From an uncultured Clostridia bacterium (GTDB lineage: Bacteria; Bacillota; Clostridia; Oscillospirales; Oscillospiraceae), in the NCBI GenBank assembly GCA_947169005.1, contig CAMVOG010000001.1, positions 1-34,754 of the forward strand: a stretch of 34,754 bases of DNA, written 5' to 3'. How positions within the stretch are numbered: the first letter of the stretch is position 1; every line of letters starts with the position of its first letter. A program made the position numbers and the translations under genes. Below are positions 4,360 to 34,754 of this stretch, piece after piece. The notes beneath the pieces were generated by a model. It searched no databases. It had not been told where the DNA came from and was given only the letters and a program-made list of their open reading frames with translations.

Positions 4360-5205
4360 TTATGATCCAAGATTGATCCACAAAGCGGGGCGAACGCCGA
4401 CGCAAGGGTCGTAGACAACGTCGATGTTGCCCTCGACGCCGCCGTCTGGACCGACATACGCAGCAGTGAGGGAATAGACGCCGGGCGACCGCAGCCACCA
4501 CCTGCACGTGCCGTTGTAATCACTGATGTTAAAGCGCCCCTGCGCTATCGCATATTCTGTCGGCCAGCACTGCCGCTCCTCCTCATTCGACGCATAATAA
4601 TTCAGCGCCTCCGGGATGCTCAGTAGGAAGATTTTGTCGTTGACATCGTTGCCAGGGTCGGTATCCCACAGTGGGTTTTTATCCGCCGTCACCGTCACCG
4701 TCACCGTCGGGATCCTCGCCTGCTCCTCCGCTGTGAACGCCGCGTTCAGAAACTCGTCGTTCAGCCATTTGCGCAGCGAGCAAGTCTCCCAGGTCACAGC
4801 GGAATCGGAATGGTTATAACGCTGACAGTCCAGCGCATACCTGCTTACGACCAGCCCGCGGCTGCCATATCGCGCCAGCACCAGCCATTCGATCTTCTCC
4901 TTGCCGTTGGTACTATCGTTGTCCTGCTCGTAGTGCCCGAAGTGGATCACATCGCCGACCTGCGCGTCCGCATATTTTGCCGCTGCTTGTCCCGGTCCGC
5001 CCTTGGGAATAAGCGGTACAAGAACAAGGACTACGGCTGCGACGATCACGACAGCGGTAGCAATGATGCCGATCATTTTGTGACTCATTATGAAGGCAGA
5101 CTTGATTTCACTGCCATTATCATTCCCTGCGGCTAATACGCTGCCGCATTCAGGACAGACCTGAGACCCGTCAGGGATCTGTCTTCCGCATTTTCCGCAA
5201 TACAT
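4360..5205 (-). CDS. Zinc-ribbon / single-TM protein with an extracytoplasmic DUF6273-like domain
   Basis: 281 aa. 'MYCGKCGRQIPDGSQVCPECG' zinc ribbon, TM 'IGIIATAVVIVAAVVLVLVPLI', then 'IEWLVL...WWLRSPG...VRPALWI'. GGAGG lies 8 nt before the ATG. Local GC is low. Confidence 0.75.
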   Translation of the reverse strand: MYCGKCGRQIPDGSQVCPECGSVLAAGNDNGSEIKSAFIMSHKMIGIIATAVVIVAAVVLVLVPLIPKGGPGQAAAKYADAQVGDVIHFGHYEQDNDSTNGKEKIEWLVLARYGSRGLVVSRYALDCQRYNHSDSAVTWETCSLRKWLNDEFLNAAFTAEEQARIPTVTVTVTADKNPLWDTDPGNDVNDKIFLLSIPEALNYYASNEEERQCWPTEYAIAQGRFNISDYNGTCRWWLRSPGVYSLTAAYVGPDGGVEGNIDVVYDPCVGVRPALWINLGS

Positions 5206-5260
5206 ATTTCTAACCTCCTATAAAGTACTCGGCATAGTTATAAGCCAACTATTTGCTCAT

Positions 5261-5713
5261 TCAATCTGTGGAGTCCCTCAATTTCGTTCCGCAGGAAACG
5301 CAAAAAACGGTTTTGCCGTCGTATGAAGCGCCGCACTGAGGGCAGGTTTTTATTTCATCCCGCTCCATCTTTGCCCCGCAGGATGCGCAAAACGCAGAGC
5401 CGTTCGGAACATCTTCTCCGCAATTGGGGCATTTGGAAAATCCTTTGATTTGCTTGATTTGTCCCCTGCAATCAGTTATCTGCGTGTTCAACAAGTTGAT
5501 TTCAGAAATCAAGTCGAATTCCTCTGAAGAGGGGTCATCTTTGTGAGTCGCATAGAAGTTTAAGCCGATCGTATAACAACACTCCTTAATTCTCTTTTCT
5601 TTTTCAGAAATGGCGACGTTCAGTTTCACAATCTCTGTCAAGTTTTTGGTCTGCTTTGCGGCGGATTGCCCAACATCTGTAATACTTTTTCCGACCTTTT
5701 CAAAGAAAGACAT
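5261..5713 (-). CDS. Double zinc-ribbon protein with a coiled-coil N-terminal half
   Basis: 150 aa from ATG 5713 (TTG 5758 is an alternative start). 'CPNCGEDVPNGSAFCASCG' and 'CPQCGASYDGKTVFCVSCG'. Local GC is low. Confidence 0.7.
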   Translation of the reverse strand: MSFFEKVGKSITDVGQSAAKQTKNLTEIVKLNVAISEKEKRIKECCYTIGLNFYATHKDDPSSEEFDLISEINLLNTQITDCRGQIKQIKGFSKCPNCGEDVPNGSAFCASCGAKMERDEIKTCPQCGASYDGKTVFCVSCGTKLRDSTD

Positions 5714-5756
5714 AAAGACATAATTATTATCCTCACTTCTAAAAAACCTGAATAAC

Positions 5757-5793
5757 AATAACTGATATCAGACAATAACCAATATCAGTTATT
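5757..5793. promoter_or_regulatory. Candidate operator in the divergent promoter region
   Basis: Perfect 12-bp inverted repeat AATAACTGATAT (5757..5768) / ATATCAGTTATT (5782..5793). It lies between the zinc-ribbon gene and the XRE gene. Confidence 0.5.
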
Positions 5794-5847
5794 AGTGCTA
5801 TACACCATAATCGGTTATGATGCAAGAGAGAATTGGAGTTGATTTCA

Positions 5848-6051
5848 ATGATTTCTTACGCACGATTATGGGAGACGATGAAAGATCGCGGGATCACGCA
5901 ATATGCTCTGATACACAAATACGGCGTCAGTCCGTCGCAGATCACACGCTTAAAGCGAAACGAAAGCGTCAGCACCCACACGATAGACGTGTTTTGCGGT
6001 ATTCTCCACTGCCGCGTGGAAGAGATCATGGAGCATATCGAAGAAAAATGA
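5848..6051 (+). CDS. XRE-family helix-turn-helix transcriptional regulator
   Basis: 67 aa, 'ARLWETMKDRGITQYALIHKYGVSPSQITRLKRNESVSTHTIDVFCGIL'. GGAG lies 9 nt before ATG 5848. Confidence 0.8.
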   Translation: MISYARLWETMKDRGITQYALIHKYGVSPSQITRLKRNESVSTHTIDVFCGILHCRVEEIMEHIEEK

Positions 6052-6296: not shown

Positions 6297-7583
6297 ATGA
6301 ATCTCTTTCTCGCCGCCGCGATCGCGCTGATTGCGGGGCTTCTGGTCACGCGGCTGACGAGCCGCCTGCGCCTGCCGGACGTGACGGCCTATCTGATCGC
6401 CGGGGTGCTGGTGGGCCCCTTCGTGCTGGGGCGGCTGGGCGTGCCCGGCCTGGGCTTCAACACCCTGGAGCAGGTGGGCGCCCTGGGCTTCATCCCCACC
6501 ACGGCCCTGGGCTTCATCGCCTTTACCATCGGCAACGAGTTCAAGCCCTCGGACCTGAAAAAGACCGGCAAAAAAATCCTCATCGTCGGCATCTTTGAGG
6601 GCGTGCTGACGAGCCTGGTGGTGGATGCGGTGCTGCTGCTGGCGACTCTCTTCCTCAAGGGCACCGTTTCCGTGGCCGGGGCCATCACCATGGGCGCCAT
6701 CGCCGCCGCCACGGCCCCCGCCGCCACCCTCATGGTGGTGCGCCAGTACAAGGCCAAGGGCGAGGTGGTGGACGTGCTGCTGCCCGTAGTGGCCCTGGAC
6801 GACGCGGTGGGCCTCGCGGTCTTCGCCGTCTCCTTCGGCATCGCCCGGGCCCTCTCGGGCGGCACCGTGGACATGATCTCCATCGCCCTGGAGCCCCTGC
6901 TGCAGATCGTGCTGAGCCTGGTGCTTGGCGCGGCGCTGGGGGAGGTCCTCACCCGGCTGGAGACCCTTTTCCACTCCAACCGCAACCGCACGGCCATGAT
7001 CGTGGGCTTCGTGCTGCTGACGGTGGCCCTTTCCATGCTGGAGTTCGACCTTGGCCCCGTCCACATCTCCTTCTCGGCCCTTCTCACCTGCATGGCCCTG
7101 GGCGTGGTGTTCTGCAACCGCTGCCCCCTGGCCGACGACATGATGGAGAAGGTGGACCGCTGGACCAGCCCCCTCTTCGCCCTCTTCTTCATCCTCAGCG
7201 GCGCGGCCCTGGACCTGAGTGTGTTCCAGAGCGTCGCCGTGGTGGGCATCGGCCTCATTTACATCCTCTTCCGCTGCGTGGGCAAGTACGCGGGCGCGTA
7301 CCTGGGCACCCGCATCACGGGCTACGGCCCCAAGGTCCGCCGCTGGCTGGGCATCACTCTCTTCCCCCAGGCGGGCGTGGCTCTGGGCATGAGCGTCACC
7401 GTCAGCTCCTGGGGCGCGGAGGGCGCGCTGATCCGCAGCATCATTCTCTTCGGCGTGCTGGTCTATGAGCTGGTGGGCCCGGTGATGACGAAATACGCCC
7501 TCACCCGCTCCGGCGACATTCAGCCCATGTCCCCCGAGGTGGCCAACCGCCGGGCCAACGCCCTGGCGGCGAAGAACAAATGA
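6297..7583 (+). CDS. Cation:proton antiporter (CPA family, Na+/H+ exchanger-like)
   Basis: 428 aa, hydrophobic throughout (about 12 TM). The N-terminus 'RLRLPDVTAYLIAGVLVGPFVLG' is typical of KefB/NapA-like transporters. No KTN domain is present. Confidence 0.85.
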   Translation: MNLFLAAAIALIAGLLVTRLTSRLRLPDVTAYLIAGVLVGPFVLGRLGVPGLGFNTLEQVGALGFIPTTALGFIAFTIGNEFKPSDLKKTGKKILIVGIFEGVLTSLVVDAVLLLATLFLKGTVSVAGAITMGAIAAATAPAATLMVVRQYKAKGEVVDVLLPVVALDDAVGLAVFAVSFGIARALSGGTVDMISIALEPLLQIVLSLVLGAALGEVLTRLETLFHSNRNRTAMIVGFVLLTVALSMLEFDLGPVHISFSALLTCMALGVVFCNRCPLADDMMEKVDRWTSPLFALFFILSGAALDLSVFQSVAVVGIGLIYILFRCVGKYAGAYLGTRITGYGPKVRRWLGITLFPQAGVALGMSVTVSSWGAEGALIRSIILFGVLVYELVGPVMTKYALTRSGDIQPMSPEVANRRANALAAKNK

Positions 7584-7589
7584 ATTTTT

Positions 7590-7632
7590 ACAGGCTCTGT
7601 CCGCTTTTTCTTGACAGGGCCTGTACTTTTTT
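7590..7632 (+). terminator. Rho-independent terminator of the antiporter gene
   Basis: 12-bp stem 7590..7601 / 7613..7624 (one G:U pair) followed by TTTTTT (7627..7632). Confidence 0.65.
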
Positions 7633-7639
7633 ATACAAT
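7611..7639 (+). promoter_or_regulatory. Putative sigma-A promoter of purA-guaA
   Basis: TTGACA (7611..7616), 17-nt spacer, TACAAT (7634..7639). The -35 hexamer overlaps the terminator loop and right arm. Confidence 0.5.
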
Positions 7640-7700
7640 ACCCCTGTGATTTAGTGTGATGAAGTATCGATGCTTCACGTGATCGAAAGGATGCGAGCCT

Positions 7701-8972
7701 ATGCTGACTGCTATTGTGGGAACCAACTGGGGCGACGAGGGCAAGGGCCGGATGGTGGACCTGCTCAGCGCCGATTACGATATCGTCTGCCGCTATCAGG
7801 GCGGCAACAACGCGGGGCATACCGTGGTGAACGACAAGGGGAAATTCATCCTCAACCTGCTGCCCTCCGGCATTCTGCGGCCCGAAACCGTGAACGTGAT
7901 GGGCCCCGGCATGGTGGTGGACCTGAAGCACCTCTGCGGCGAGATCGCCCGCCTGCGGGAGGCGGGCATCGAGATCGGGCCGGAGCATCTGAAGCTCAGC
8001 GACCGGGCCGTGATCTGCCTGCCCTATCACGTGCTGCTGGACGGGCTGGAGGAGGATCGGCTGGGGGACGCAAAGTTCGGCTCCACCCGGCGGGGCATCG
8101 CCCCGGTCTATGCGGACAAGTACATGAAGAAGGCCCTGCGCATGGGCGAGCTGCTGGACACGGCGGAGCTGGAAAAGCGGCTGCCCGGCATCGTGGAATG
8201 GAAGAATCTCACGGTGGAAAAGGGTTACGGCGCAGAGGCCGTGGACGCCGGGGCGCTCCTGGCCTGGCTGCGGGAGTACGGCGACCCTCTCAAGCCCTAT
8301 ATCTGCGACGTGTCCGCCTATCTGCGGGAGGCGACGGCGGCGGGCAAGAACGTGATGTTCGAGGCCCAGCTTGGCTCCCTGCGGGACATTGACTACGGCA
8401 TTTACCCCTATACCTCCTCCTCCACGACCCTGGCAGCCTATGCCCCCATCGGGGCGGGCCTCCCCGGCGCGCGGCTGGACCGGGTGGTAGGCATCATGAA
8501 GGCCTATTCCAGCTGCGTGGGCGAGGGCCCCTTCACCTGCGAGCTCTTCGGCCCGGAGGGGGACCGTCTGCGGGAAGCGGGCGGCGAATACGGCGCGGCC
8601 ACGGGTCGCCCCCGGCGCGTGGGCGGCTTCGACGCGGTGGCCTCCCGTTACGGGGCCATGGTCCAGGGCTGCACGGAGATCGCCCTGACGAAGCTGGACG
8701 TGCTGTCCTATATGGAGAGGATCCCCGTCTGCGTGGCCTATGAGATCGACGGGGAGCGGGTGTACGACTTTCCCGTGGGCTCCCGCCTGGAACGGGCCAA
8801 GCCCGTCTATGAAACCTTCGAGGGCTTCGGCGCGGATATTTCCCGCTGCCGCAGCTTCGACGAGCTGCCCGAGGCGGCGCAGCGCTATGTGCGCTACGTG
8901 GAAAAGGAAGTGGGCGTGCCCGTGAAATACGTCTCCGTGGGCGCGAGCCGCGAGGAGATCATCGTTTTATAA
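7701..8972 (+). CDS. purA: Adenylosuccinate synthase
   Basis: 423 aa with 'GTNWGDEGKGRMVD' and 'GGNNAGHTV' motifs and full-length collinearity with PurA. Confidence 0.95.
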   Translation: MLTAIVGTNWGDEGKGRMVDLLSADYDIVCRYQGGNNAGHTVVNDKGKFILNLLPSGILRPETVNVMGPGMVVDLKHLCGEIARLREAGIEIGPEHLKLSDRAVICLPYHVLLDGLEEDRLGDAKFGSTRRGIAPVYADKYMKKALRMGELLDTAELEKRLPGIVEWKNLTVEKGYGAEAVDAGALLAWLREYGDPLKPYICDVSAYLREATAAGKNVMFEAQLGSLRDIDYGIYPYTSSSTTLAAYAPIGAGLPGARLDRVVGIMKAYSSCVGEGPFTCELFGPEGDRLREAGGEYGAATGRPRRVGGFDAVASRYGAMVQGCTEIALTKLDVLSYMERIPVCVAYEIDGERVYDFPVGSRLERAKPVYETFEGFGADISRCRSFDELPEAAQRYVRYVEKEVGVPVKYVSVGASREEIIVL

Positions 8973-31635: not shown

Positions 31636-31968
31636 TCAGACGTAATTCGCATGCGAATTGGCGGTTGCGATCATGATGATAAGAAACACGACCGTAGAGC
31701 CGATCGCGCTGACCAGCTGGATCCTTCTGACGATGCTGCTGCGAACTCCAAACAGAAACAGAACGCCTGTTATCATACAGACGGCGGCCAGAACGATCTG
31801 CAGATAGATCAGGAATGACTGACCCGAAATATTCAGCCTTGTGATCGGGCTGCGATGCCATTCCCGAACCGCACCGTTCGGCATCCTGGCCCGGTCCGTG
31901 CAAATGTTCAGATTCAGAACGACAAAAAACGCAATGTTTGCGATGATGGAAAGGATCGTCATCAGCAT
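31636..31968 (-). CDS. Small (110 aa) three-TM membrane protein, hypothetical
   Basis: GAAGGAG lies about 10 nt before the ATG. Hydrophobic segments include 'ILSIIANIAFFVVLNL', 'FLIYLQIVLAAVCMITGVLFLF' and 'VSAIGSTVVFLIIMIA'. A terminator lies downstream. Confidence 0.55.
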   Translation of the reverse strand: MLMTILSIIANIAFFVVLNLNICTDRARMPNGAVREWHRSPITRLNISGQSFLIYLQIVLAAVCMITGVLFLFGVRSSIVRRIQLVSAIGSTVVFLIIMIATANSHANYV

Positions 31969-32025
31969 CTGCCCTCAGCTCCTTCTGCATAAAAGAAAAA
32001 AGCCGCTGTCGCGACTTTTTCTTTT

Positions 32026-32048: not shown

Positions 32049-32214
32049 GTCAAAAGGCGGAGAATTATATATCTTTTTGCGTCTAATACGTGCTATTTTA
32101 ATTAAAAATCAGAGGAATTTCGTACAAGTCAATCCAAGCCGTCCATTCTGTTTTATTCTGTAAGTGGTCAAATAAGTGGTCAGGCCAAGAGGCCAAAAAT
32201 GGAGGAGACGGTTT

Positions 32215-32592
32215 ATGAATACTGTGAATACGATTACCTATCACCGGGAGGGTGATTATCTGCTTCCGGACCTCATTCCGCCCGCGTCGCCGAGAATCGG
32301 CGTCTGGGGCATTAGATGCCGGGAGCACCTGCGGAAGCATCACGATGGCCTTTATACCGGGCTGCTTCTCAGCGGGAAACTGAACGCCCATTTGGAAGAG
32401 ATCGACCGCTCAGCCAGTGAGATGTTCGATCTACTGATCCAGCAGTACGCCGAGCGCGAGGGCGTGACAGAAGAGCTGAAGGCCCTGGATCAGATTGAGT
32501 GGGTCAGGAGGATGAATAGTATCCGGGAACGGGTGGAAAGAGTGGTGGCATCAGAATTTTTAGATTTAGATAATGATATAGATATCGAATAA
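32215..32592 (+). CDS. tnpV: TnpV-family transposon-associated protein
   Basis: 125 aa from ATG 32215, which follows GGAGGAG. 'ITYHREGDYLLPDLIPP...IGVWGIRCREHLRKHHDGLYTGLLLSGKLNAHLEEIDRSASEMF' matches the Tn4451-type TnpV pattern. Confidence 0.8.
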   Translation: MNTVNTITYHREGDYLLPDLIPPASPRIGVWGIRCREHLRKHHDGLYTGLLLSGKLNAHLEEIDRSASEMFDLLIQQYAEREGVTEELKALDQIEWVRRMNSIRERVERVVASEFLDLDNDIDIE

Positions 32593-32602
32593 ACCAGTAA
32601 CG

Positions 32603-32652
32603 ACCGGCGACGCTTAAAACTAACTGCTTCGCCGGTTGCTTTTTATTGTTTT
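32603..32652 (+). terminator. Hairpin terminator after tnpV
   Basis: Stem 32603..32613 / 32626..32636 (one mismatch) followed by TGCTTTTTATTGTTTT. It overlaps the 3' end of the convergent gene. Confidence 0.45.
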
Positions 32653-33183
32653 CTTGTTTTTTTGGCGTGGAACGGAAGATACATTTGCGCCTTGACTTGG
32701 CCCCGGTGTATCGTCCTGAATTAGAGTAGCATTAAGCATCGCGGTAATTAAGAACTTCATTATTAAACACATGAGGAATATGTTATACAAAAACAGGGAA
32801 ACTGCTATTGAAGAGGCAACCTTCAGCAGAACAAGGTAACTGCCAGGGAACGCAATTTGTATTGCTGAGATATCTGGCTTAAGCAGGTAGAGGGAACTTA
32901 TCAAGATTGTAATTACACTACATACTCCAGCGATTCTTAGATACGTTGCTAAAACCCCTAGCATTGATTTTGTAGAATTCTCAGAATCTACCATTTTCTT
33001 GAGAGATCGAGAAAAAGCGCTCCCCAGTAGAGTTGATGCTGCGGAGACATAGACCGCAAGCTCGATGGAAGCAACAGTCAATGCCGCCTCGGCAACAAAG
33101 GAATAGCGAAGCTGGAATACTAGTCCTGCTGCAATAGCAACACATAAAACTAAAAGAGATTGTATTTTGTGACGCTTATACAT
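32620..33183 (-). CDS. 4-TM membrane protein with a basic C-terminal tail, hypothetical
   Basis: 187 aa at about 40% GC. GAGGT precedes the ATG, and the start lies 4 nt after the upstream gene's stop. It has four long hydrophobic segments. Confidence 0.7.
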   Translation of the reverse strand: MYKRHKIQSLLVLCVAIAAGLVFQLRYSFVAEAALTVASIELAVYVSAASTLLGSAFSRSLKKMVDSENSTKSMLGVLATYLRIAGVCSVITILISSLYLLKPDISAIQIAFPGSYLVLLKVASSIAVSLFLYNIFLMCLIMKFLITAMLNATLIQDDTPGPSQGANVSSVPRQKNKKTIKSNRRSS

Positions 33184-33187
33184 AATT

Positions 33188-33970
33188 CTACCTCAGTTTT
33201 GCGAGTAGAGCGACTTTTACTTCTTGGGGATCATAATGCTCAGTTGCATCTTTGCGAACATCTATTTCAATTCTTTCAATAACGGATGAGAAATCAAATG
33301 TTTGCTCTATACCTTCGTCATTTGCTCCAATTACGATTATTTGTTCGTACTCATCGCGATGATGATGAAGTTTATCAATTAATGCCCTTCCTAAATGTAC
33401 AGGCGTATCCCCGTAGGATACTTTGAGCTGGAGTTTGTTCGGAATGTCCAATCCGCCATAATCGGATACCGCCTTAAAGATATCATTTTCCCGAGAAAAC
33501 ATATTATCGACCTGAGTAAAATGGAATCCTTTTATGGTTTTTATATGCGAGCAAAAATCGTCTACAGATGTATAAATGTTTCTTATCTGATATTCCTTTT
33601 GAGAGGCGTCAGAAAGGAAGTTCCGAAAAGCTGTTTTTGCCGCGAGAGGGCTGATGAACAGTCTTTCTCGCTTATTGTCATAGCACGCGAAATACTGTTG
33701 CCGAGGTTCAACTTGGTTTTGTGTCCGTGGATTTGGTTGTATTTCTCCCGTTGCTGAGTCAACAACATAGTCTGTAAACCTTATTGCATCATCATATTCA
33801 CAGGCAAGCCAAAAGAACCTATCATCAATCACTTCAGTACTTATCACGTAGAGATATTTTTGGTTATCTGGCTGATATATGCTCGTGTGATTTTCATGAA
33901 TGAATCTCAAGTCTGTGATGGTCGCAGCTCTTGTTCCCTCATAGTCAAGTAATAAAGTGCTAAACTTCAT
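33188..33970 (-). CDS. 260-aa cytoplasmic protein; no family recognised
   Basis: GGGGAGGG precedes ATG 33970. GC is low, the protein is soluble, and I see no catalytic motif. Confidence 0.75.
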   Translation of the reverse strand: MKFSTLLLDYEGTRAATITDLRFIHENHTSIYQPDNQKYLYVISTEVIDDRFFWLACEYDDAIRFTDYVVDSATGEIQPNPRTQNQVEPRQQYFACYDNKRERLFISPLAAKTAFRNFLSDASQKEYQIRNIYTSVDDFCSHIKTIKGFHFTQVDNMFSRENDIFKAVSDYGGLDIPNKLQLKVSYGDTPVHLGRALIDKLHHHRDEYEQIIVIGANDEGIEQTFDFSSVIERIEIDVRKDATEHYDPQEVKVALLAKLR

Positions 33971-34013
33971 GGCTTGCCCTCCCCAAGAATTGAAATGTGT
34001 TGAAGTGTAATTC

Positions 34014-34673
34014 CTATCTTTCCAGCCGGTGCCGGATATCGTTCAACCACTCGCCCTTGTATTTGAAATAGCGGGGACCGGCGATGGAGTATTTGCTGCC
34101 GGTGAGAAGCTGAGCTAAAGCAGAGAGCGAATAGGCTTGTCCCTGGTAGTCCACGGTCTTGTCGTCGATCACCGTGCATTTGATCTCCGGATTGTTGCAA
34201 TACTCGATCTGCTCCCCTGGCTGAATGCTGCACATAGAGAACCGAAACGGCGACTGGCGCTCTTTATGCTCGGCGTCGATCTCCTGCGCGGTCTCCTCCG
34301 CCTGGCGCTGCGCTTCATCCATGACGGCGAGCTTCAGCTTATCTCCGCGACCGTGGATCTCTGCTATAGCTTCCAGGATGGAATAGGCATCTTCCGGTGA
34401 CATGGCGTAGAACTCACGAATACGCTGCTTCCCGTTGAAGTTCTCGATGGACCGCAGGTTCGGATTCAGTTTGTCGATAATGCTATGGATCTTAAGATCG
34501 GAAAGCCGGGAGTTGACCTCATAGGTCGCGTAGACACGGAACGCAAACGGAATGCACTCGCTCCGGTTGAGCTGCTGTAAGCGCTTCTCAATATCGTCTG
34601 CATACCCGATTTTGACATACTCCGGGAAGGACGGGTTTGTCAGTATGTAAATAACGCCTGCTTGTTTATCCAT
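34014..34673 (-). CDS. T5orf172/GIY-YIG-like nuclease-domain protein with an extra C-terminal domain
   Basis: 219 aa. 'GVIYILTNPSFPEYVKIGYADDIEKRLQQLN...REFY' is typical of T5orf172 (GIY-YIG superfamily). AGGAG precedes the ATG. Confidence 0.8.
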   Translation of the reverse strand: MDKQAGVIYILTNPSFPEYVKIGYADDIEKRLQQLNRSECIPFAFRVYATYEVNSRLSDLKIHSIIDKLNPNLRSIENFNGKQRIREFYAMSPEDAYSILEAIAEIHGRGDKLKLAVMDEAQRQAEETAQEIDAEHKERQSPFRFSMCSIQPGEQIEYCNNPEIKCTVIDDKTVDYQGQAYSLSALAQLLTGSKYSIAGPRYFKYKGEWLNDIRHRLER

Positions 34674-34754
34674 GATAATTACTCCTGAAAAATCTTGAAT
34701 TAAGTACTATAGTCGCTACTTCTCTGGTAGTTTCGACCGTAGTTTCTCTGATAC

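Follow-up and report, generated by a model that had tools for sequence, protein, structure and literature searches.

Rex systems and the B-C gene pair

RexAB of phage lambda is the oldest known abortive-infection (Abi) system, and its history goes back about 70 years to the rII experiments. Its gene order is that of a soluble protein followed by a four-transmembrane protein (rexA, 279 amino acids (aa); rexB, 144 aa; PDB 8TWQ). In this study, we describe two genes, B and C, in a 34,754-nucleotide (nt) stretch of DNA from an uncultured Clostridia bacterium of the Oscillospiraceae (contig CAMVOG010000001.1; the whole stretch is called the window below). With modest confidence, we read these two genes as a phage-exclusion (abortive-infection) module of RexAB type, which a mobile element of a gut Oscillospirales bacterium carries as low-GC cargo.

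The crystal structure of RexA has been described as a globular domain in two parts (residues 1-139 plus 248-279) and a dimerisation domain (143-234) with four strands and four helices, and RdgC is the published structural relative of RexA (PMC11077077). Beyond exclusion, lambda RexA biases the lysis-lysogeny switch, and RexB blocks the degradation of antitoxins by ClpXP/ClpAP (PMC11077077). A second system, RexABpp, is encoded by the P1 prophage of Pseudomonas putida (PP_5643/PP_5644) (PMC12894663). It was assigned to the RexAB type from remote or structural similarity of its soluble protein to 8TWQ, together with a four-transmembrane partner without detectable RexB homology (PMC12894663). Diverged pairs of a RexA-like protein and a membrane protein that exclude heterotypic phages are also described in actinobacteriophages (Sbash gp30/31, CarolAnn gp44, Butters, Toast gp42) (PMC11077077).

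Pairing and genomic context of B and C

Gene B (33970..33188, minus strand) encodes a soluble protein of 260 aa, a putative cytoplasmic sensor/activator that is RexA-like by predicted fold. Gene C (33183..32620, minus strand) encodes a four-transmembrane membrane protein of 187 aa, a putative membrane effector of RexB-like size and topology. The Shine-Dalgarno sequence of C (GAGGT) lies inside the end of B (junction 33184..33200, minus strand) and only 4 nt separate the stop of B from the start of C, which suggests that the two genes are translationally coupled. A further gene on the same strand, A (34673..34014, minus strand), lies 43 nt upstream of B. A preliminary description of this DNA had treated A, B and C as one low-GC three-gene cassette. 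Its reading of the sequence was borne out: the three co-directional open reading frames (ORFs) are real, both spacers agree, and each start is preceded at 7-11 nt by a purine-rich Shine-Dalgarno sequence (AGGAG, GGGGAGGG, GAGGT). The low GC of the last two genes was likewise confirmed (B, 0.39; C, 0.42; window positions 1-31000, 0.62); the values for A and for the neighbouring tnpV were 0.53 and 0.52.

Genomic contexts were taken from metagenome contigs and from 18 loci in GTDB species-representative genomes, and the ORFs of all loci were searched with the A protein and with hidden Markov models (HMMs) built for B and for C. The results showed that every complete B gene is directly followed by a C homologue, in 21 of 21 distinct loci (gap -4 to +6 nt), and that the gene upstream of B differs between loci. 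Co-occurrence, which the preliminary description had named as a test of the three-gene cassette, thus holds for B with C and fails for A, which is absent from the other distinct loci examined; only B and C make a conserved unit. All 18 GTDB loci belong to Oscillospirales gut Clostridia (Faecalibacterium, Gemmiger, Pseudoflavonifractor capillosus ATCC 29799, Ruthenibacterium, Anaerofilum, Faecousia). The close homologues of B form 52 clusters, all unnamed and of about 260 aa, and an exhaustive HMM search (E<=1e-3) extended the family to 487 clusters at 50% identity, nearly all of 255-275 aa. An exact look-up of the B protein returned only contigs of <=2.4 kb, and the order A-B-C-tnpV recurs in five of them.

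The neighbours of the pair are mainly defence genes. B-C directly follows hsdR or hsdS of a type I restriction-modification (RM) system with gaps of tens of nt in two loci (L017, L019), and a type III Res gene ends 6 nt upstream of B in three others (L028, L031, L034). AbiEii is the upstream gene in L020, where a TnpV homologue also lies about 2.6 kb from the pair; GmrSD is next to the pair on the opposite strand in L009, and a DUF6236 protein precedes B in L013. Among 145 neighbour ORFs within 5 kb, the commonest families were type I and III RM subunits, PbeA, mad2, AbiEii, NgoFVII and serine/tyrosine recombinases. In every locus, B-C has a lower GC than the DNA on either side, which we count as a sign of its horizontal transfer. 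Because of the constant pairing, the variable upstream genes, the RM, Abi and recombinase neighbours and the low GC, B-C is a mobile cassette of two genes that belongs to defence islands and is often attached at the 3' end of RM operons.

In L006, hsdS is separated from B by a gene for a 232-aa protein (7123-7821), which also occurs in L007 and L008; it carries the trypsin-like serine protease motifs TATHV and GFSGGPV and has no Pfam match on record.

Three distant relatives of B, at about 25-30% identity, were also examined. P0100 (L037) belongs to a prophage that carries terminase and portal genes and is followed by an overlapping gene for a 164-aa C homologue (C-profile E 1.9e-22). P0200 (L039-L041, 5061-7258) is also prophage-borne and is followed by an overlapping gene for a 144-aa C homologue (C-profile E 2.8e-8); this pair stands directly beside a helix-turn-helix repressor gene and near AbiJ, SocA/Panacea and ERF. 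The third, P0150 (L038, 4292-6407), is part of a type I RM operon with the order hsdS, Abi_C protein, 204-aa protein, B and hsdR, with RhuM also there, and has no C-like membrane partner, so B-like proteins can occur alone. Since P0100 and P0200 keep B-C together in prophages at such low identity, the pair is ancient and common to phages and integrative elements, mostly but not always intact. Searches of PLSDB plasmids gave no match (megablast of the region; tblastn of B), nor did searches of INPHARED phages by tblastn of B, P0100 and P0200. One locus was found in IMG/VR by a scan with alignment A1, and none by a scan with P0200.

Predicted fold of B

Protein B had been said to show no motif that could be placed, and indeed it matched nothing in Pfam, NCBIfam, PADLOC or PHROGs. 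Among 113 diverse members of its family, none consistently matched any Pfam or PADLOC model and none matched RexA, and PDB sequence searches with the 36- and 113-sequence profiles of B returned nothing, or only chance proteasome matches. An AlphaFold2 model of B was built from the 36-sequence alignment (mean predicted local distance difference test score (pLDDT) 81.3; predicted template modelling score (pTM) 0.65) and compared with the PDB using Foldseek. The top match was lambda RexA (8twq_A; E 5.4e-6, probability 1.00, full-length alignment), which was also the only match below E 1e-3. RdgC (2owl_A) came second at 3.2e-3, and the remainder was noise. The two matches agree with each other because RdgC is RexA's structural relative. 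Against BFVD, the model best matched siphovirus proteins of 277-322 aa that are uncharacterised (E down to 1.9e-12); phage RdgC-like proteins ranked next.

In the model, a beta-rich N-terminal domain (1-131) leads into a central block (136-226) with four strands and three helices, after which the C-terminal helix (248-259) returns. This predicted order of domains agrees with the published description of RexA, in which the globular domain is likewise split around a central domain.

Three residues, N80, E88 and G215, are invariant in the 113 family sequences. The first two lie in the most conserved segment of B, TGExxPNPRxxxQVEPRxQ (residues 74-92; window 33695-33751), which is also the lowest-confidence part of the model (pLDDT 56-62). 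These features suggest that residues 74-92 form a flexible functional loop, and we regard the N80/E88 stretch as a candidate trigger-binding or partner-binding site.

Predicted topology of C

The last protein had been described as a four-transmembrane protein with a Lys/Arg tail, and both features are present. Like B, it had no match to any model in the Pfam, NCBIfam, PADLOC and PHROGs copies used. The AlphaFold2 model of C (pLDDT 80) contains long helices at 3-23, 28-52, 74-101 and 116-158. Its hydrophobic segments (7-25, 35-53, 77-102 and 114-146) are spaced similarly to those of lambda RexB (8-26, 42-66, 84-114 and 116-139). In BFVD, the model best matched a 143-aa phage protein (A0A6J5N390; probability 1.00, TM-score normalised to the target (TMt) 0.68) and A0A8S5S8H0 (172 aa) from Siphoviridae sp. 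ctylc9, the same phage that supplies the second-best B-like structural match. A weak likeness to a holin model was also found (probability 0.54).

The tail of C (residues 160-187; window 32620-32706) consists of 28 Lys/Arg-rich, disordered residues and occurs in the window copy only; all nine aligned homologues lack it and stop near residue 160. Since the GC of this stretch (0.47) exceeds that of the remainder of the gene, the tail may stem from recombination that joined the gene to the DNA on the tnpV side.

In one short metagenome contig (L001, 1453-1975), whose B protein is identical to the window's, the C gene is broken into ORFs of 74 and 137 aa, by a frameshift or an assembly error.

Comparison with RexAB-type systems

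The pair resembles lambda RexAB in several respects. A soluble protein of about 260-280 aa is followed by a four-transmembrane protein of about 145-160 aa. The soluble partner has the RexA/RdgC two-domain fold in its predicted model, with RexA as its best structural match and the split-globular and central-domain order described above. A four-transmembrane partner of about 16 kDa, with RexB-like spacing of its transmembrane segments, is encoded 4 nt downstream and recurs beside B in 21 of 21 loci. In addition, distant members of the family are prophage-borne, and the repressor-adjacent position of the P0200 pair recalls that of rexAB next to cI, although the repressor is divergently transcribed here.

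Several results weigh against a RexAB-type assignment. At E<=1, B matched neither of the RexA models (Pfam PF15969, PADLOC PDLC02339) and C none of the RexB models (Pfam; PADLOC PDLC02340), whereas the positive controls were found readily (lambda RexA to PDLC02339, 9e-110; lambda RexB to PDLC02340, 8.6e-61). Profile-to-profile comparison with hhalign gave a probability of 0.12% for the 113-sequence B alignment (A4) against a 29-sequence RexA alignment (A5) and of 0.6% for the C profile (A2) against lambda RexB, and the B family showed no significant alignment to the single sequence of lambda RexA. Judged by sequence, B and C are thus non-members of the RexA and RexB families. The structural match of B to 8twq_A has a TM-score normalised to the query (TMq) of 0.42, a root-mean-square deviation of 10 A and an identity of 10%; the low TM-score may be due to flexibility of the hinge, or the resemblance may simply be distant. 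The Foldseek E-values of C were weak (0.14-0.46), and lambda RexB was not among the matches listed. B is acidic (isoelectric point 5.2) and RexA basic (8.6), so RexA-like non-specific DNA binding by B should not be assumed. The partnerless P0150 is a further point of this kind. The window C also differs from RexB in its extra Lys/Arg tail, and most B-C copies lie outside a cI-rex-type operon, being appended to RM operons or placed in defence islands of Firmicute integrative elements.

Similar evidence led to the assignment of RexABpp. That pair differs from B-C in that HHpred can detect RexApp (98% probability), while B escapes detection by hhalign, and in that RexApp is larger (37.5 kDa with its His tag) (PMC12894663). 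Experiments have demonstrated that RexABpp defends its host, binds DNA and has a RexB-dependent toxicity (PMC12894663), whereas B-C is known here from sequence and models. The Rex-like pairs of actinobacteriophages, as far as their description goes, are set apart from B-C by a different host phylum and by their ties to phage immunity regions rather than RM operons (PMC11077077).

The analysis shows the ORFs themselves, the strict pairing, the defence-island and RM context, the predicted RexA-like fold and the four-transmembrane topology. We conclude that B-C is probably a relative of the Rex system, very diverged and unannotated, that cannot be recognised by sequence and whose function we infer from these features. 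No rival accounts as well as the RexAB reading for both the obligatory membrane partner and the defence surroundings. The preliminary description, which had proposed an uncharacterised Abi-like module of a soluble sensor and a small multi-transmembrane protein, was therefore largely correct in what it observed and partly right in its interpretation. The layout it recognised holds for B and C, with their 21/21 pairing, defence context and RexA-like fold, and does not hold for three genes; the pair is uncharacterised at the level of sequence databases, but its architecture corresponds to the known RexAB-type kind.

Kiwa (four-transmembrane KwaA plus KwaB) and the other two-gene membrane systems of PADLOC were also considered and rejected, as neither B, C nor the 113 family members gave a meaningful HMM match to them.

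Proposed mechanism and significance

A mechanism can be drawn by analogy with lambda RexA/RexB and P. putida RexABpp, from which the sensing, the B-C interaction, the membrane depolarisation and the anti-phage phenotype are all inferred. B, probably as a dimer, would sense an infection cue and then activate C. As a four-transmembrane protein of the inner membrane, C would be kept at a fixed ratio to B through translational coupling; on activation it would oligomerise into a pore or channel, so that the membrane potential would collapse and the infected cell would halt growth before phage release. From the frequent tight joining of the pair to RM operons, we suggest that it forms a second layer of defence, placed behind restriction.

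A broader proposal goes further, and we put it forward as a doubtful one. The approximately 490 clusters would make up a RexAB-like family that annotation has missed, a second-line Abi add-on of gut Firmicutes fused to the 3' end of type I and III RM operons. Its acidic sensor would respond to a cue unlike that of lambda RexA (e.g. restriction failure, anti-restriction proteins or phage DNA ends), and the N80/E88 loop would be a trigger-binding or C-gating element.

If this broader proposal is true, comparison of B-C with lambda would define the minimal conserved Rex mechanism. Which features of a Rex system are essential is shown by a family that retains nothing but fold, gene order and four-transmembrane partner and has no sequence similarity left. 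On the RexAB reading, Rex-type defence would extend from proteobacterial and actinobacterial prophages to abundant human-gut Firmicutes (Faecalibacterium, Gemmiger, Pseudoflavonifractor, Ruthenibacterium) and their phages. HMMs built from alignments A4 (B) and A2 (C) would let the pair be annotated, and its tight joining to RM operons points to a testable layered defence of RM plus Abi.

Alternative explanations

The pair might instead be an addiction or stabilisation module, toxin-antitoxin-like with C as membrane toxin and B as regulator, or a prophage regulator of lysis-lysogeny or superinfection. This is consistent with the constant location of the pair on mobile or low-GC DNA next to recombinases, with the phage repressor beside the L039 pair, with the weak holin likeness of C and with the known side functions of lambda RexA and RexB (PMC11077077). 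Most copies, however, lie in RM/Abi neighbourhoods without phage regulatory genes, and roles in addiction or lysogeny are compatible with exclusion, being part of Rex biology as well. We consider this explanation unlikely.

It is rather unlikely that the resemblance to RexA is an artefact of modelling or searching and that B-C is a defence-island pair of a wholly new kind with an unrelated mechanism. The TMq of 0.42, the 10% identity, the poorly modelled conserved loop (62-90) and the lack of profile-level homology would be expected of such an artefact. These are opposed by the Foldseek probability of 1.00, the large gap to unrelated matches after RdgC and the fact that RdgC, RexA's own relative, ranked second; the order of secondary structure and the domain boundaries also agree with the crystal-structure description of RexA, and the downstream four-transmembrane partner of about 150 aa is an independent matching feature.

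The second-best fold match of B, Escherichia coli RdgC (PDB 2OWL), shares the RexA/RdgC two-domain fold. RdgC is a stand-alone nucleoid/recombination protein, without a membrane partner or a defence-island context. B could accordingly be an RdgC-like protein of recombination or DNA metabolism in mobile elements (e.g. one that modulates RecA or recombination during transfer), with C an unrelated membrane protein and no anti-phage role for either. Several BFVD matches of B are annotated as RdgC or exonuclease, B is acidic like many DNA-mimic or clamp proteins, and one distant relative lacks C. This explanation is nevertheless improbable: the RexA score is about 600-fold better than that of RdgC, an obligatory, translationally coupled membrane partner recurs in 21 of 21 loci and is present in two distant prophages, and the pair is attached to RM operons or to Abi genes rather than to recombination or replication modules.

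A single defence system of A, B and C, with the T5orf172 nuclease as effector or sensor, would accord with the co-directional genes, the 43-nt A-B spacer, the absence of a terminator-like site between A and B and the A-B-C-tnpV order of the five short contigs, but we reject it as very improbable on co-occurrence, because those contigs carry a B identical to the window's and are the same element rather than independent evidence, A homologues were found within 10 kb of B-C in 0 of 20 other distinct loci, the GC of A (0.53) departs from that of the pair (0.39-0.42), the gene upstream of B is variable, and A matches a single-gene candidate of PADLOC over its full length.

Gene A

The 219-aa product of gene A carries a T5orf172 (GIY-YIG-like) domain and a DUF2924-like C-terminal domain, in agreement with the T5orf172 domain and C-terminal domain first reported for it (Pfam: T5orf172 7.6e-13, MUG113 1.4e-8 and DUF2924 3.6e-6, the last below its gathering score). 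It matched PADLOC PDLC05043, the model of PDC-S57, over its full length (residues 4-218 of 219; E 7.8e-104), and therefore belongs to an already catalogued candidate family, with the N-terminal T5orf172 and C-terminal DUF2924-like domains in common. PDC-S57 is a single-gene phage-defence candidate of PADLOC; it has no conserved link to B-C. Among all ORFs of the collected loci, homologues of A were confined to the window and the near-identical short contigs L001-L005. An exact look-up of the A protein returned nothing on record, and a literature search found no paper on its family (PDC-S57; T5orf172 plus DUF2924 in defence). Gene A is thus a separate, neighbouring single-gene defence candidate that together with B-C forms a small defence islet.

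Surroundings of the locus

On the other side of the pair, tnpV (32176..32592, plus strand; PF14198, 3.2e-36) is convergent with C. It marks the mobile-element context, lies outside the module and had been correctly named as a neighbour. The locus had further been placed at the tRNA-proximal edge of a mobile element. Scans of the whole window with ARAGORN and Rfam returned no tRNA and no RNA family, so the tRNA-proximal position is rejected. The edge could not be confirmed: apart from tnpV, no mobility gene and no recombinase were present among the window ORFs scanned, which encode surface proteins, a GH88 hydrolase, a sigma factor and zinc-ribbon proteins, and the window stops 81 nt upstream of gene A. 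A mobile element, if there is one, must therefore reach past the window end at 34754.

A scan for promoters and terminators gave results at background level. A terminator-like hairpin of 11 pairs followed by a T-run was seen on the minus strand at window 31996-32021, about 600 nt downstream of C; it lies beyond the stretch antisense to tnpV and just upstream of a 110-aa hydrophobic ORF (31636-31968) without a family match. Elsewhere in the window, where GC is otherwise 0.6-0.7, a second low-GC patch (0.40-0.48) occupies positions 5001-6000. Its ORFs (4360-5205 and 5261-5758, both minus strand) encode zinc-ribbon proteins (DUF6273 in one, a double zinc ribbon in the other), and the patch may be another small acquired islet.

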